A stretch of DNA of 64,000 bases, from positions 1 to 64,000 of the forward strand of contig JBBQQR010000010.1 of the NCBI GenBank assembly GCA_038215615.1, read 5' to 3'. The position numbers were made by a program, and so were the translations under genes. Positions 7,021 through 12,007 of this stretch are shown here, piece by piece. The stretch's first letter is position 1. Each line of letters opens with the position of its first letter. The DNA comes from Vulcanimicrobiales bacterium (GTDB taxonomy: Bacteria > Vulcanimicrobiota > Vulcanimicrobiia > Vulcanimicrobiales > Vulcanimicrobiaceae). The notes beneath the pieces are model-generated. The model saw only the letters and a program-made list of their open reading frames with translations. It did no database searches and was not told the origin of the DNA.

Positions 7021-8454
7021 TTAACGTTTTTTGCGGACCGGGGCTTTCTTTTTGGCAGCCTTGGGTGCGGGTTTCTTGACCGCAGCTTTTTTGGGCGCGA
7101 CTTTTTTCGGCGCAACTTTTTTCTTAGGCGCCTGCGCGGCTTTTTTCACCGCAAGTTTTTTGGGCGCGGGTTTCTTCGCCGCCGGTTTGGTCTTTTTGAC
7201 CGCGGGGCGGGCCGTTTTCTTCACGGCGACGGGTTTCTTTTTCACTGCCGCCGCTTTAACGGGTTTAGCCGGCTTAACGGCTTTGACTGCCTTCGCCGCG
7301 ACTTTGCGCGCGGGCGGTCTGAGCAGCCGTTTCGAGAGGCGCGCGGGGGCTGCGGTTTTCTTTTTCTTGCGGCCGCGCAGCGCGCGTTCCTCGGCTTCGT
7401 CGCGCTCGGGTAAGCCGAGCTCGGCGCGCCCGTAACCGCTGATGCTGCTGCCGGCCTGAACCGCCGGCTCCTGCGCCATTACTTTCTGCATATGCTCTTT
7501 GGTCGCGCGCAGCGCAACGCGCGCCAGCCGCCCGGCGACCGGGAAAACTAACTCGTTGATCTTCGCTTCGTCGAGCAGTTTGAGAACGATCTCGAAGGCG
7601 CTGCCTTGATCCTTCGGGCTGTGGGCGTCGGAACCGACGGCAATCCCCACGCCTTTATTCTTGGCTTTCTTCATCAGGCGCAGCAGCGCGTCACGATATT
7701 TCTGTTTTTGCTCGGCCGGATTGTCGCGGTAAATGAAACGCGTGTTGATTTCGATAGCGAAACCTCGCGCGGCACACGCGTCCAGCACGCGGTTTTCATA
7801 CTGCTCGAGCCGTTTCATGTCGGGCCAGTTGCCGAAGACGGCCGGCGCATAGATATGCGCGACGATTTGCCCAGGCAGCTTCTCGATGTCGTCGATCAAT
7901 TTTGCGACGTACATCTCCCACGCTTTTTGCGTGCCGACGACGGCGAAGAGATCCTTAAACTCGGGATTGTCAAAAGGCCACGGCCAGTCCGCGCCTTTCT
8001 CCGGATGTTCGATCGTGAGAAAATGTACGGAACGGATCATGCCGTCGGGCTTCATCGCGTCGACAATGTTCTGAGCGTCGGGACGCGCGCGGGGATCGTC
8101 GTCGATCTCAGCGCCGATCGAAAAACGCATGCCTTTGCGTAGCCCTTCGGAAACGACCGCCGCGTGCGCGACGTCGACGCCGGCGGTTTCAGCCGCGCCG
8201 TATAAGTCGCCGGCCTCGGCCAACTTCAGCGCGCGCCGCACCGTGTTGACCGCGCCCGGATCTTCGAACGTCAGATAGTTGATATGGTCGGAAACCATGA
8301 GGAAGCGCGGCGACCCCCGCTGGCATGCATGGAAAAACCACAAAAAAAGCATACGCGCGGAGTATGCGATGGGGCGTTCCTCGGCAAACGGTTTGTGTTC
8401 GCCCTTGGCGTGGCCGTGAACGTCGGGGATGGCGGCGGTGCGGGGGTCGCTCAG
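7021..8454 (-). CDS. PHP-family (histidinol-phosphatase-like) phosphoesterase with Lys/Ala/Pro-rich histone-H1-like C-terminal tail; proposed CTG start
   Basis: The reading frame continues upstream of the ORF-track start (8352) and encodes DVHGH; VSDH, EIN and GSDAH motifs follow; AAGGAG lies 6 nt before CTG at 8454; the C-terminus is AKK/PAKK-rich. Confidence 0.8.
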   Translation of the reverse strand: MSDPRTAAIPDVHGHAKGEHKPFAEERPIAYSARMLFLWFFHACQRGSPRFLMVSDHINYLTFEDPGAVNTVRRALKLAEAGDLYGAAETAGVDVAHAAVVSEGLRKGMRFSIGAEIDDDPRARPDAQNIVDAMKPDGMIRSVHFLTIEHPEKGADWPWPFDNPEFKDLFAVVGTQKAWEMYVAKLIDDIEKLPGQIVAHIYAPAVFGNWPDMKRLEQYENRVLDACAARGFAIEINTRFIYRDNPAEQKQKYRDALLRLMKKAKNKGVGIAVGSDAHSPKDQGSAFEIVLKLLDEAKINELVFPVAGRLARVALRATKEHMQKVMAQEPAVQAGSSISGYGRAELGLPERDEAEERALRGRKKKKTAAPARLSKRLLRPPARKVAAKAVKAVKPAKPVKAAAVKKKPVAVKKTARPAVKKTKPAAKKPAPKKLAVKKAAQAPKKKVAPKKVAPKKAAVKKPAPKAAKKKAPVRKKR

Positions 8455-8464
8455 ATCATTCTCC

Positions 8465-9130
8465 TTAGACTCCGGCCGCCGCAGCTTGCCTGCCGGCGTT
8501 GCGCCTTTCGATCGAAGGGATGGTGGCGGCTATGGCCAGTTCGATCGCGCGATTCATTAATTCCAGAGACATTGAGGGACTGTTTCCCGCTCCGGCTGCA
8601 ATGGCTTGCTCGGGGAGGTAGGGCAGATGGATGAATCCGGCCGTCACCGGAGGCGAGACCGACTCAGCGATGCCCAAGACCTCATACAAAATTTGATTGC
8701 AGAGATAGGTTCCGGCCGAATTTGAGACGTAGCCGGGCACGCCTTCGCGCTGCCAGGCCTCGACGATGTCGGCAATAGGCATGGGGGAGAGCCGCGCATC
8801 GGGGCCGCCCCGCAGAATCGGCTCGTTCGTGCGTTCCTCGCCCGCGTTGTCGGGCTGCTCGAAGTCGAGCATATTCACGGCCACGCGTTCCAGCGAGACC
8901 GCGGTGCGGCCGGCGGCGAGACCCGTGCAAACGACCAACTCAGGCTGCTCCTCTTCAAATGCTTGGCGCAGGCGATCGCCTACGCCCGATGTCTCCACCG
9001 GAAAAACCCGTGCGACGACACGGCGCCCCGCGATGAGGCGCCCTTCCAGACTGCGCGCGACCAATTCGCTGGGGTTGACGCTGCTGCCGCCAAACGGCTC
9101 GAACCCCGTCACGAGAACCGAACTTGACAC
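8465..9130 (-). CDS. pcp: Pyroglutamyl-peptidase I (C15)
   Basis: VLVTGFEPFGG, LERVAVN, SAGTYLCN, GFIHLP catalytic motifs. Confidence 0.95.
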   Translation of the reverse strand: MSSSVLVTGFEPFGGSSVNPSELVARSLEGRLIAGRRVVARVFPVETSGVGDRLRQAFEEEQPELVVCTGLAAGRTAVSLERVAVNMLDFEQPDNAGEERTNEPILRGGPDARLSPMPIADIVEAWQREGVPGYVSNSAGTYLCNQILYEVLGIAESVSPPVTAGFIHLPYLPEQAIAAGAGNSPSMSLELMNRAIELAIAATIPSIERRNAGRQAAAAGV

Positions 9131-9148
9131 CGGTAAAAAGGTTAGGTG

Positions 9149-9176
9149 AAAAAAAGCCGGCTCCTACGAGCCGGCT
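9149..9176 (-). terminator. Intrinsic terminator
   Basis: Minus strand AGCCGGCTC-GTAG-GAGCCGGCT followed by a T run. Confidence 0.8.
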
Positions 9177-9198
9177 GGACTTGTGGTACCGCTGCCGC

Positions 9199-9270
9199 CT
9201 ACGAGGCGGCACCTCTTTTCATCGTAATGGTGTAAAAACGCTTATGACTATCGATACTTACGATGACCAC
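9199..9270 (-). other. Candidate micro-ORF/leader peptide (about 20-23 aa, ...SIDSHKRFYTITMKRGAAS)
   Basis: Strong SD-like GGAGGAGGTG; open frame ending at a TAG within a hairpin; terminator follows; start codon ambiguous. Confidence 0.35.
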
Positions 9271-9342
9271 CTCCTCCGTCCGGCTGTTTGCCCTCTTTCG
9301 TATATTTCTGAGGGAACCGCGGACTAATTTGAAAGCCGACGT

Positions 9343-10080
9343 TCAGCGCTCCGGGCGATAGCCCTCCATCTTTAGCAAACGTGCCTTCATCTCGATTCCG
9401 TAACCGTAATTGTGCAGCTCGCCGTGGGAGTCGACGACGCGATGGCACGGGAAGAAGAGCGGCAGCGGATTGCGCGCCATCGCCTGTCCAACGGCACGCG
9501 CCGCCTTGGGCCGGCCGATCGTTTGCGCGACCCACGCATACGAGCGCACTTGGCCCGGTGGAATGCTGGCGGCAGCTTTGAGCGCGTCCTGTTCGAACTG
9601 CGTCAGATCGGTGATGTCGACTTTATTTTGGTCGACGCGCCACGTTTTAAAGTAGTCGTCGAAGATTTTTTGAAGCCACACGGGCGTTTGTCCCTTGTCG
9701 ACGGGCCGGTGCAAGCGGCGCTCGATCTGCTCGCGGACTTTGTCGAGCCCTTCACCGCGATCCAAGCCGATGAACGCGATACGGTCGCCCTTGTAGCCGA
9801 CATAGACGCGTCCGATTTGCGTGCGCAGCCATGTCAAGACGATCGGCGTGCTGCGGTGTTTACTTTGCAGGGTCGCGATGTGTTCGATCACGCGTTTGGC
9901 GAGATCGCACGAGGGTTCGGGCTGCGGGAGGCACGAGAGGCAGTAGGCGACGCCTTCGTACTGTTCGTAGAGATCCTGGCAGTTTTGGCACGCGCGCAGA
10001 TGGGTGTGGACGGCGGCGCGGAGTGGGGGCATTCCTTCGCGGATATCATCCCACAGCGCTTCGACTTCACGACATCGCAT
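9343..10080 (-). CDS. ZAS/zf-HC2 anti-sigma domain fused to methylated-DNA-protein-cysteine methyltransferase (Ogt/MGMT)
   Basis: N-terminal MRC...HLRACQNC (C...HxxxCxxC); C-terminal SYAWVA...ARAVGQAMARNP...PCHRVV; ATG at 10080 overlaps the sigma gene end. Confidence 0.88.
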   Translation of the reverse strand: MRCREVEALWDDIREGMPPLRAAVHTHLRACQNCQDLYEQYEGVAYCLSCLPQPEPSCDLAKRVIEHIATLQSKHRSTPIVLTWLRTQIGRVYVGYKGDRIAFIGLDRGEGLDKVREQIERRLHRPVDKGQTPVWLQKIFDDYFKTWRVDQNKVDITDLTQFEQDALKAAASIPPGQVRSYAWVAQTIGRPKAARAVGQAMARNPLPLFFPCHRVVDSHGELHNYGYGIEMKARLLKMEGYRPER

Positions 10081-10723
10081 GGAGAGGGGCTCCTTCCGGC
10101 ACGACTTTGCCGATTTGCGGTCCGAGGATACGGCGCAGAATACGCACCGCGCGATGCACGTGCGATTTGACCGTTCCGATCGGTTGGTTGAGAATTTCAG
10201 CAATTTCGGGGTGGCTGCGGCCTTCGATAAACCGCAGCGTGGCTGCGGCGCGCAGATGCATGGGGAGTTGGAGGAGCGCTCGCTCCACCAGCGCCATATC
10301 GGCGTTTCGTTCGAGGATCTTTTCGGGCTGCGCGGGGCCATCGTGGCGCGAGCTGCGCAGCAGGGCATCGGGATCGGCCAGCGCATCGAGCGCGACGTTG
10401 GTCGGCCGCTTTCCACGCAAGCGGTTTCGCGTAACATTTAAAGTGATGGTGTAGAGCCACGGCTGCAGGCGCAACTCGCCGCGCTGCTCCGGGGACATTT
10501 TGGCCAGGGCGCGATACGCGCGGACGAACGCGTCTTGCACGATCTCTTCGGCGTCTTCGCGGTTGCCGGTCATGCGCAAGGCGAAGCCGTAGAGCCGGCG
10601 CTCGTATTCATCGACGATACTGTCGAAGCGGTCGGCTTCAGGAGCGCCGACACGCTTCACCGCTTTCTTCTGTGCCGGAGCCGGCACCCAATACTCCCTC
10701 AAGGACGGTGCGAGAGCGGTCAT
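10067..10723 (-). CDS. ECF-family RNA polymerase sigma factor
   Basis: Region 2 (DAEEIVQDAFVRAY, WLYTITLN) and region 4 (EIAEILNQPIGTVKSHVHRA); 218 aa. Confidence 0.95.
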   Translation of the reverse strand: MTALAPSLREYWVPAPAQKKAVKRVGAPEADRFDSIVDEYERRLYGFALRMTGNREDAEEIVQDAFVRAYRALAKMSPEQRGELRLQPWLYTITLNVTRNRLRGKRPTNVALDALADPDALLRSSRHDGPAQPEKILERNADMALVERALLQLPMHLRAAATLRFIEGRSHPEIAEILNQPIGTVKSHVHRAVRILRRILGPQIGKVVPEGAPLHAMS

Positions 10724-10869
10724 ATACGCTTTCGAAACACCGCTGCCTGGGGCGAAGGTTTCACATTAGGCTGGGCGAACCCGTCCGCCATGACGCCCCA
10801 AGCGTTCATAAAAATCCCTAACCGTTCAGGCGCGCTGCGCCGAGCGGTTTTTGCTTTCTGGGGGTACTG

Positions 10870-11259
10870 ATGGAAGCGATCGAGCCGAAGGAAGTTATTT
10901 TCGATGCCTACACGATGTGCAGTTTTCTTCCGGCGCTCGATTCCTCACGAGCTATACCCTTGGTCCTGATCGGTTACCGAAACGGCGAAGATCCGTGGTT
11001 CGTTTGGCTCGTGCCCAAAGAAGGCATTTCAGCCGAAGGCCTGACCGACGATCCGTACTATGCGAAAGTGCTGCGCGATCCGCCCGCGTATTTCGTGAAA
11101 AAACTCAACAAATACATCGAGGAAACGGGTTCGTGCAAACGCGGCGTTGAGATGCTTATCGATTGCCACCAAAATCATCTCGCGTTCACGCCGCTCGTCC
11201 ACTTGCGCGAACGGCCCTTCACGCACCCAATGACGGTGGAGTTGCTGGCCGCCGTATAG
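10870..11259 (+). CDS. Hypothetical protein
   Basis: 129-aa ATG ORF filling the gap between the sigma gene and a convergent gene; no recognised motif. Confidence 0.65.
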   Translation: MEAIEPKEVIFDAYTMCSFLPALDSSRAIPLVLIGYRNGEDPWFVWLVPKEGISAEGLTDDPYYAKVLRDPPAYFVKKLNKYIEETGSCKRGVEMLIDCHQNHLAFTPLVHLRERPFTHPMTVELLAAV

Positions 11260-11278
11260 CTTCGTTTCGCTGCAGACG

Positions 11279-12007
11279 CTAGTGCGAGCTCGCCTCGGAA
11301 CGCGACGGTAGTGCTGACGGCTGCGCCTTGATCGATCGCTCGTAGACGATCGTCACCGGCGAGTGGCGCGAGCCGTTTTGCAGCGTGCCCGAAATCGTGA
11401 GCGTTTCGTTCAGCGCGAGCAGAAGCGGATCGCCGCTCATCGCATAATATGCGGTTCCGCGCATGCGCATCGTTCCGCGCATCGTCATCGACGCACGGTC
11501 CGGGAGTGGACCCGCCATCGGTCCGGCCGCGTCGAAGTTGACGGCTAAGGCGTTCTGCGAGGCAACGCGTTCGTTTGCGCCCCGCCGTAGGTAGCCGCGC
11601 AGCGTGCCGCCCATAACCGGCGCGGGGAACTCGAACGGAACGTCGCTCTTTAACCGAAGCAAATCGTGGAGCGTTTGCTGGTCGAGCTCGATCGCAAAGG
11701 GCTGGTTGAGGACGGTCAGATAATCGGGGTCGCCGTCGGTACGGTCTTGCAGCTCGCCTTGCGACGTCAAAATCTGAACGAAGGCGGCGTGGGTCGGAAC
11801 CCGCCCGCTTTCATCGATGCGCAGGTACTTCGCATCGGCCCGGAACTGTGTCTGCTTCCCTACACTGCGAATCGTCAGCTGCTGGGTGCCGCTGTACGAG
11901 ATGTTGGTTTGCAGGTCAGAGGAACCGATCCGGTACCGGTCGCTTCCGCTGACGGCGTATCGCTGATCGGCGCGGGCGGGCAGCGCAATCACCAGTACCG
12001 CTACCAT
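11279..12007 (-). CDS. Secreted hypothetical protein
   Basis: Hydrophobic N-terminus with ARA cleavage site; beta-rich body; the true start may lie slightly upstream. Confidence 0.75.
   Translation of the reverse strand: MVAVLVIALPARADQRYAVSGSDRYRIGSSDLQTNISYSGTQQLTIRSVGKQTQFRADAKYLRIDESGRVPTHAAFVQILTSQGELQDRTDGDPDYLTVLNQPFAIELDQQTLHDLLRLKSDVPFEFPAPVMGGTLRGYLRRGANERVASQNALAVNFDAAGPMAGPLPDRASMTMRGTMRMRGTAYYAMSGDPLLLALNETLTISGTLQNGSRHSPVTIVYERSIKAQPSALPSRSEASSH

Follow-up and report, generated by a model that had tools for sequence, protein, structure and literature searches.

A suicide DNA repair enzyme that probably holds its own sigma factor until it is consumed

What does an O6-alkylguanine repair enzyme do at the end of an anti-sigma factor? 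The question is raised by a two-gene locus in a 64,000-nucleotide (nt) stretch of a Vulcanimicrobiales genome (assembly GCA_038215615.1, contig JBBQQR010000010.1, positions 1 to 64,000; this whole stretch is called the window below). At this locus the gene for an extracytoplasmic function (ECF) sigma factor overlaps the gene for a protein that joins an N-terminal domain of the zinc-containing anti-sigma (ZAS) kind to a C-terminal alkyltransferase of the MGMT type. Our answer is that the enzyme probably keeps the sigma factor bound until it is itself consumed. Judged from sequence comparison and structure prediction, the feature is real and conserved, and the mechanism proposed for it is attractive.

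The sigma factor gene and the fusion gene

The two genes, their ribosome-binding signal and the three domains of the fusion protein are located in the window as follows (aa, amino acids).

10067..10723, reverse strand: ECF (group IV) sigma factor gene, 218 aa, from the open reading frame (ORF) and its Pfam and NCBIfam matches
9343..10080, reverse strand: anti-sigma/MGMT fusion gene, ATG at 10080, stop ending at 9343; 245 aa, soluble
10090..10097, reverse strand: Shine-Dalgarno-like GGAAGGAG, 9 nt ahead of the fusion ATG and within the 3' end of the sigma gene, read from the sequence
9853..10080, reverse strand: anti-sigma domain, residues 1-76, with candidate zinc ligands C3, H27, C31 and C34 (H27 to C34 at nt 9979-10002)
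9616..9849, reverse strand: MGMT N-terminal (ribonuclease-like) domain, about residues 78-155; AlphaFold2 strands in 80-106 and a helix at 112-123
9361..9600, reverse strand: MGMT C-terminal DNA-binding and catalytic domain, residues 161-240; DNA_binding_1, E = 2.2e-29

The sigma protein was matched by Pfam Sigma70_r2 at residues 37-106 (E = 2.8e-16) and Sigma70_r4_2 at residues 145-194 (E = 8.1e-14), and a scan of all 218 aa found no Pfam region 1 or region 3, nor any other Pfam domain. Since these two are its sole Pfam domains, the protein was classified as an ECF-type factor. It scores 91.5 bits against the NCBIfam model sigma70-ECF TIGR02937 (E = 4.3e-26; cut-off 42.9), and the top-scoring NCBIfam equivalog model is SigW, with a score under its cut-off. 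Orthologues at the 30 loci examined in its own order are 76-100% identical, and the genome that carries the window has 12 matches to sigma-70 region 2. As a separate observation, some 30 aa extend the N-terminus ahead of region 2 (residues 1-30; window 10634-10723, reverse strand) and are conserved; their start is kept across the order as M-S/T-x-L-A-(A)-P-L-L-x-R-E-Y-x-V-P.

The fusion gene overlaps the sigma gene by 14 nt (10067-10080). Its product reaches a Kyte-Doolittle 19-residue mean of just 0.48 at the highest, and was therefore considered soluble and free of membrane helices. The signature motifs are MRC (C3) and HLRACQNC (residues 27-34, with H27, C31 and C34) in the N-terminal part, and SYAWVA...ARAVG (residues 180-198) and PCHRV (residues 211-215) in the C-terminal part. 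The first-pass annotation, made from the sequence alone, had described an ECF gene overlapping by 14 nt a soluble 245-aa protein with a C...HxxxCxxC N-terminus and a complete MGMT, including its helix-turn-helix and PCHRV. ORF coordinates and hydropathy agree with the first part of this description, and the motifs, the DNA_binding_1 match and the two-domain fold with the second.

The MGMT part is well delimited. Besides DNA_binding_1, it exceeds the cut-off of NCBIfam TIGR00589 (95.2 bits; cut-off 46.4), and the Pfam family Methyltransf_1N was matched by the homologues P0124, P0154 and P0223. PCHR lies at nt 9439-9450, which places the predicted acceptor cysteine at Cys212. An AlphaFold2 model built from 35 aligned sequences reached a mean pLDDT (predicted local distance difference test) of 82.6 and a pTM (predicted template modelling score) of 0.64, with pLDDT of 59-71 at residues 1-20 and 51-80. 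In a Foldseek search, approximately residues 78-245 superpose on the E. coli Ada C-terminal domain 1sfe (E = 1e-11; TM-score 0.81, target-normalised; 168 aligned columns). Next in rank come M. tuberculosis OGT, human AGT and archaeal OGTs, and every one of the 42 matches at E<=0.001 is an alkyltransferase or an alkyltransferase-like protein (ATL).

Y181, R195, N204, P211, C212, H213, R214, Y225 and E239 are invariant in the 35-sequence alignment, which spans several phyla. At a constant offset of 67, we take seven of these to be Y114, R128, N137, C145, H146, Y158 and E172 of human AGT. H146, E172 and Y114 of the human enzyme are named in the accessible text of PMC10779285. On sequence and model, the MGMT part looks like a working enzyme and not like a degenerate domain. 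C3, H27, C31, C34 and PCHR are jointly invariant in the 35 aligned fusions, and the architecture that joins an anti-sigma domain to MGMT is therefore beyond chance; in 20 members of the clade, all seven cysteines of the fusion protein are invariant.

The anti-sigma domain and its predicted complex with the sigma factor

The N-terminal domain is predicted by AlphaFold2 to form a four-helix bundle (residues 3-15, 18-30, 32-49 and 60-74). Its candidate zinc ligands C3, H27, C31 and C34 are invariant in the 20 clade members, in the 35 cross-phylum sequences and in 24 isolated N-terminal domains. An additional set, C47, C50, C58 and H67, is invariant in the 20 clade members only; these residues sit in the modelled sigma interface and are missing from the fusions of other phyla. 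The single fusion sequence gave weak matches to NCBIfam anti-sigma models, under their cut-offs (6e-4 and 9e-4). A profile built from the 24 aligned N-terminal domains was searched against solved structures and matched five anti-sigma factors.

RsiW, 5wuq_C: E = 5.1e-6, aligned over positions 1-68 of the 80 in the profile
RslA, 3hug_B: E = 3e-5
DdvA, 8rlz_A: E = 5.7e-3
RsrA, 5frf_A: E = 0.073, a weak match
ChrR, 2q1z_B: E = 0.11

The sigma factor was modelled together with residues 1-78 of the fusion in three runs, alongside three controls. The interface score ipSAE equals 0.78, 0.76 and 0.75 (median 0.76), against 0.00 in the best of the three controls; in a benchmark of this score, the mark is attained by 116 of the 157 solved pairs and by 2 of the 215 mismatched ones. 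The runs have at least 69% of contacts in common, with a partner pLDDT of at least 81. Fusion residues 7-15, 39-57 and 60-71 are predicted to contact sigma residues 33-71 and 142-208, with helix 4 (60-71) placed on sigma region 2 and the end of helix 3 with the following loop (39-57) on region 4. The model thus supports a class I arrangement, in which regions 2 and 4 of the sigma factor enclose the anti-sigma domain. Binding of the sigma factor by the N-terminal domain, which had been proposed from the sequence, gains support from the model in this sense; as solved ECF/anti-sigma complexes exist, such a pass shows likeness to them rather than binding by the present copy.

Linkage and distribution

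The fusion is a regular component of its lineage. The best 120 of 5236 metagenome matches are all 242-253 aa long and 66-91% identical, and their named sources are Baltobacteraceae, Rubrimentiphilum and Vulcanimicrobiaceae, all belonging to Eremiobacterota. In a survey of 401 sampled genomes of the phylum (up to 15 of them unpublished and counted in the tallies of this survey only), a full-length orthologue was found in 291 of 296 genomes of the same family and in five of five genomes from another family of that order. The remaining families of the phylum gave matches at the level of the MGMT domain only (E 1e-9 to 1e-21). At all 30 own-order loci, taken from published genomes, a sigma orthologue lies directly upstream of the fusion gene and overlaps it.

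A library-wide search recovered distant full-length relatives at 32-47% identity. Among 25 of these, Pfam detected DNA_binding_1 in 22, a C-terminal Ada_Zn_binding domain in 12 and zf-HC2 in 8, and Ada-type cysteine ligands are discernible in their alignment. The Ada_Zn_binding domain serves Ada as methyl-phosphotriester acceptor and as sensor, and its presence in 12 of the 25 ties the fusion module to alkylation.

Species-representative genomes were then scanned across phyla with an alignment of eight proteins as query, and the best 80 of at least 600 stretches were analysed. Among these 80 loci, 28 match at full length and come from Acidobacteriota (Thermoanaerobaculia), Longimicrobiales, Chloroflexia, Latescibacterota, Zixiibacteriota and other bacteria; 23 of the 28 have HxxxCxxC. 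The other 52 (L061-L112), from Chloroflexota, Limnocylindrales, Actinomycetota, Dormiibacterota and Thermogemmatispora, match only from about residues 24-59 onwards, and HxxxCxxC was found in none of them. At the N-terminus of their MGMT-AdaZn proteins, approximately 40-50 aa are retained and can be aligned with helix 4 and the end of helix 3, the part predicted to contact the sigma factor.

Seventy-six of the 80 loci could be tested for an adjacent sigma gene, the other four being at contig ends. In the longest upstream ORF on the same strand, sigma-70 region 4 was detected at 75 of the 76 loci and region 2 at 73. The single exception is L046, where the one ORF examined has no match and an alternative ORF lay outside the test. 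The survey of ECF adjacency that had been suggested for this fusion thus came out in favour of a stable pairing, both in the order itself and elsewhere. In a quick maximum-likelihood tree of 62 sigma sequences, including four ECF paralogues from the window's own genome, the Eremiobacterota sigmas are monophyletic (SH-aLRT 100). They group (SH-aLRT 90) with the MGMT-linked sigmas of Chloroflexota and Actinomycetota, apart from the Acidobacteriota-type sigmas, which make up a clade of their own; the deeper branching order, including that of the four paralogues, is unsupported. This grouping, with the promoter conservation described below, suggests that partners without a ZAS domain descended from partners with one, a direction that we infer.

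Two variants of the pairing were noted. At locus L028 (G366:C30, 1477-2898, reverse strand), the sigma and ZAS-MGMT genes form one frame of 474 aa, and in the 425-aa database entry P0148 the fusion comes after sigma region 4. Such sequences represent either true single-chain sigma/anti-sigma/MGMT proteins or frameshift errors. At all nine Thermoanaerobaculia loci tested (L046-L051, L056, L058 and L060), a gene for a SpoIIE/PP2C-type phosphatase follows the ZAS-MGMT-AdaZn gene, often overlapping it (E 8e-20 to 8.5e-43), which suggests a third component in that lineage.

Promoter and operon structure

Two transcription signals flank the gene pair.

10736..10763, reverse strand: ECF-type promoter TGAAAC-N17-GTGTT, with the -35 element at 10758-10763 and the -10 core at 10736-10740
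9145..9176, reverse strand: terminator-like hairpin and T-run; hairpin at 9155-9176 with a 9-bp stem including 7 GC pairs, followed by TTTTTTT

Since the promoter ends 12 nt ahead of the sigma ATG, the sigma mRNA would be near-leaderless, and the hairpin downstream of the fusion gene argues for an operon of two genes. All 30 own-order loci have TGAAAC(C/T)-N16/17-(G)GTGTT ending about 11-12 nt ahead of the sigma ATG, and the exact promoter occurs once in the 2.21-Mb genome, at the sigma gene. Because the promoter is conserved at this place, autoregulation of the sigma gene is well supported at the sequence level. A scan of 41 genomes of the family (2 unpublished) gave about 56 exact matches, against about 24 in a reversed control; at least 11 of the 56 are the sigma gene's own promoter. 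The more general motif TG[AC]AAC-N-G[GT]GTT stands ahead of the sigma gene at 35 of 47 loci without ZAS, of the Chloroflexota/Actinomycetota type, where it takes the form TGCAACC-N-G[GT]GTT (reversed control, 0). It was found ahead of the sigma gene at none of the 25 triple-fusion loci.

Upstream of the sigma promoter lies an imperfect palindrome (10790-10809; minus-strand reading ATGAACGC-TTGG-GGCGTCAT) with the arms TGA(A)CGC and GCGTCA. It is present at most of the orthologous loci L003-L025, approximately 75 to 150 nt ahead of the ATG, and may, on its sequence, be a binding site for a regulator. A small ORF in this conserved upstream element was considered and rejected, given an in-frame TGA at codon 4 in several orthologues. 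An Rfam scan of 9000-11400 found no match at E<=1. A search of sequencing runs for this DNA listed no RNA run, and one DNA run contains 0.96 of the sampled words.

Genome context

The genome that carries the window is rated 100% complete (54 contigs, 2.21 Mb). It encodes two DNA_binding_1 proteins, the fusion and a PWHRV protein at C7:78054-78248, forward strand (L002 1258-1791); as PWHRV replaces PCHRV, the latter was assigned as an ATL without the acceptor cysteine. The fusion is accordingly the sole Cys-bearing alkyltransferase found in this genome. Neither Ada_Zn_binding nor an AlkB-type dioxygenase was found in it, and at this completeness the suggestion of an Ada-independent system holds for the genome at hand. 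Elsewhere in the window, 7021-8352 (reverse strand) encodes a Pfam-less protein of 443 aa with a C-terminal tail of about 110 residues that are nearly all Lys, Ala, Pro and Val, resembling histone H1.

Proposed mechanism and alternatives

We lean, with slightly better than even confidence, towards a mechanism in which the sigma factor is let go once the enzyme has been alkylated, a release that we infer, and spent enzyme is then replaced from the operon. At rest, the partner that is co-translated with the sigma factor would bind it through the zinc anti-sigma domain and keep it silent. When the fusion repairs O6-alkylguanine, the alkyl group would be moved onto Cys212, and the alkylated protein would be destabilised at the junction of the two alkyltransferase domains and either be degraded or lose its grip on the sigma factor. 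The released sigma factor would transcribe its own TGAAAC-N17-GTGTT promoter, new sigma factor and fresh enzyme would be made, and the fresh enzyme would re-capture the sigma factor. The net effect would be a pool of unspent enzyme that is topped up in proportion to its consumption.

Alkylation inactivates alkyltransferases permanently. The alkylated proteins are destabilised via the connection between their N- and C-terminal domains and degraded in human, yeast and archaeal cells, according to PMC4605297 and PMC10779285. As the anti-sigma domain is joined directly to the N-terminal domain of the alkyltransferase, unfolding or proteolysis of the spent enzyme would remove the anti-sigma factor and thereby free the sigma factor. 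The methyl-sensing zinc domain of Ada has been repeatedly added to the fusion in other phyla, which argues that alkylation is the relevant signal.

A number of observations weigh against this cycle. In the available text of PMC10779285, the extent of such degradation in other organisms is given as unknown, and it is not established for bacteria. Next to the operon lie unrelated genes, for a pyroglutamyl peptidase, a GH125 mannosidase and Pfam-less proteins. The complex-model pass may be due only to the ECF/anti-sigma complexes already solved, and in many zinc anti-sigma domains the zinc is purely structural. The Pfam comparison proposed in the first-pass annotation was positive for DNA_binding_1, but zf-HC2 gave no match to the window's own fusion even at E<=1, although it matches 18 of the 24 aligned homologous N-terminal domains (E<=0.01). 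The relaxed promoter motif, with 30 matches genome-wide, barely exceeds its reversed control (22). It identified three more sites in the genome, in the form TG[AC]AAC-N-GG(G)TT, 9-12 nt ahead of an ATG and outside long ORFs, and none of the three downstream genes is a repair gene.

G000 C4:118420-118884, reverse strand: DUF5069 gene, relaxed motif upstream
G000 C4:103546-104310, forward strand: DUF4097 'toastrack' lipoprotein gene, relaxed motif upstream
G000 C3:61026-61400, reverse strand: ORF of 111 aa without a family, relaxed motif upstream

All three could equally be targets of the present sigma factor or of a paralogous ECF factor. The motif precedes 12 of 28 DUF5069 orthologues (10 of 26 when two unpublished genomes are set aside), whereas both controls gave 0 of 28, and a tblastn search found a DUF5069 copy beside none of 110 sigma-MGMT loci. 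No alkylation-repair gene, glycosylase or AlkB was found among the motif-bearing candidates. Repair-type neighbours of related loci amount to an HhH-GPD protein in one of 29 ORFs examined (L036). As no alkylation-repair gene is among the candidate targets, the adaptive response that had been proposed for the locus stands only in the narrow form of an autoregulated sigma-MGMT operon.

The same observations can be read in other ways. In one of them, which we judge unlikely, sensing is done by the zinc-thiolate anti-sigma domain, in the manner of RsrA, a protein responsive to thiol-reactive compounds. Oxidants and electrophiles, including SN2 methylating agents, would hit its zinc-ligand cysteines or C47, C50 and C58, and MGMT would be a mere co-delivered output. 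The invariance of the ZAS ligands is in line with such a sensor, as are the three additional invariant cysteines and His67, located in the modelled segment (39-57, 60-71) that contacts sigma region 4, and the weak RsrA profile match (0.073). However, RsiW and RslA, not RsrA, are the best profile matches, and C47, C50 and C58 are specific to the clade and missing from the fusions of other phyla. A thiol sensor would also leave unexplained why an intact MGMT, accompanied elsewhere by an Ada zinc domain, is covalently fused to it in many lineages. The N-terminal 76 residues might, on the other hand, be no anti-sigma domain at all; the protein would then be an Ogt variant with a generic zinc ribbon or dimerisation module, and the gene overlap would reflect mere operon economy. 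We hold this to be very improbable: the missing zf-HC2 match and the low pLDDT (59-71) at residues 1-20 and 51-80 would fit it, but it is opposed by the profile matches to solved anti-sigma factors, the predicted four-helix layout, the complex model (0.76 versus 0.00) and the ECF linkage at 30 of 30 own-order loci and at 75 of the 76 testable among the best 80.

A further reading, quite unlikely in our estimate, accepts the anti-sigma fusion as constitutive and makes MGMT blind to the signal: the enzyme would be made in step with the sigma factor, or the complex parked on DNA, and the sigma factor, freed by another cue, would control genes outside repair. It is hard to reconcile with the strict co-conservation of the MGMT catalytic residues and the anti-sigma ligands, and with the repeated addition of a second methyl-acceptor domain, both of which are difficult to explain without a link to alkylation. 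Nor does the fusion have a membrane or extracytoplasmic part that could receive an envelope signal. Nevertheless, the candidate extra targets (DUF5069, the DUF4097 lipoprotein and the 111-aa ORF) are not repair genes, the -35 element TGAAAC and the top NCBIfam and PDB matches recall the envelope-stress pair SigW/RsiW, and the PP2C phosphatase gene of Thermoanaerobaculia hints at other inputs.

The preferred reading, release of the sigma factor by alkylation, has a stronger version that we take seriously but consider short of probable. MGMT would be the sensor in a strict sense: each alkylation of Cys212 would inactivate one anti-sigma factor and free one sigma factor, and transcription would count lesions. 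ZAS-MGMT would be the ancestral form across several phyla, and the ECF122-like and ECF203-like partners in Chloroflexota and Actinomycetota would derive from it by trimming, with only the sigma-contacting helices retained and regulation by MGMT still in place. A bolder extension would make C47, C50, C58 and H67 a second zinc site and an extra methyl acceptor, replacing the missing zinc domain of Ada.

Significance

If true, the proposed circuit would be a third wiring of the alkylation response, after Ada-type activators and constitutive Ogt, in which a suicide enzyme doubles as an anti-sigma factor and its consumption is read directly as transcription. It would also supply a mechanism for ECF122 and ECF203, two groups classified as being without a regulator. 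Since the fusion is the sole Cys-bearing alkyltransferase found in this 2.2-Mb genome, the circuit would govern its entire capacity for O6-alkylguanine repair. With two genes and one promoter, the system is compact and could be transferred to a laboratory host or used as a damage-dosimeter circuit.

Comparison with known systems

The linkage of ECF and MGMT genes is already published. The accessible text of the ECF classification (Casas-Pastor 2021, PMC7826278) describes ECF122 with MGMT conserved at +1, and ECF203 with MGMT at +1, Ada_Zn_binding and TetR, both without a putative anti-sigma factor. The available part of a 2022 review (PMC8999054) lists ECF122 under an unknown mechanism and ECF203 under possible TetR control, and a role in DNA damage repair is suggested for the two groups in the corresponding parts of both papers (PMC7826278, PMC8999054). 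The first-pass annotation knew of no characterised example. For the ECF-MGMT pairing this does not hold, given ECF122 and ECF203, whereas no publication was found that reads the partner as an anti-sigma fusion. An anti-sigma/alkyltransferase fusion was likewise not found in the published literature covered by our search, which did not reach the original description of ECF122 (Huang et al. 2015).

The present system resembles both groups in the order of an ECF sigma gene and an MGMT gene at +1. The differences listed here are taken from the published group descriptions. Both groups are described as 100% Actinobacteria, whereas the present clade belongs to Eremiobacterota, and the full ZAS domain of the present partner has no described counterpart in either. 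The published promoter of ECF122, CTCAC (-35) and CGTCTAC (-10), differs from TGAAAC-N17-GTGTT, and a CTCAC...CGTC motif of the ECF122 type was found upstream of none of 72 related sigma genes. Unlike ECF203, the present system has no Ada_Zn_binding in the protein or the genome and no adjacent TetR gene, and its promoter is conserved, while ECF203 is described without a conserved promoter.

Fusions of an alkyltransferase to a second functional module are known from AGT-EndoV, ATL-EndoV and C. elegans AGT-2 (PMC10779285), but none of the fusions listed in the accessible text of this 2023 family review is regulatory, and the word 'sigma' is absent from its main text.

Among zinc anti-sigma systems, SigW/RsiW, RslA/SigL, RsrA/SigR and ChrR/RpoE share with the present locus an anti-sigma gene of the C/H-x(23-26)-H-x3-C-x2-C type directly after, and overlapping, the ECF gene, and the modelled position between sigma regions 2 and 4 is that of class I. 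The closest likeness on several counts is to the B. subtilis pair SigW/RsiW (complex 5wuq), with RsiW as the top profile match and SigW as the top NCBIfam model; TGAAAC is also the consensus -35 element of SigW. However, RsiW is a membrane protein freed by regulated proteolysis from outside the cell, whereas the present fusion has no membrane segment, and its proposed sensor part is a cytoplasmic suicide DNA-repair enzyme.

The system closest in logic is Ada of E. coli, where a repair protein links its own irreversible alkylation to the transcription of the gene that encodes it, as is proposed here. The C-terminal part of the fusion superposes on that of Ada (1sfe), and its relatives in other phyla bear the N-terminal Cys4 zinc domain of Ada. 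In contrast to Ada, the present fusion has neither an AraC-type DNA-binding module nor the Cys4 zinc domain. The activating signal of Ada is methylation of this zinc domain and not of the O6 acceptor cysteine, whereas in the present fusion alkylation of Cys212 would be the signal. Its proposed output, finally, would be exerted by sequestration of a sigma factor rather than by direct binding to a promoter.

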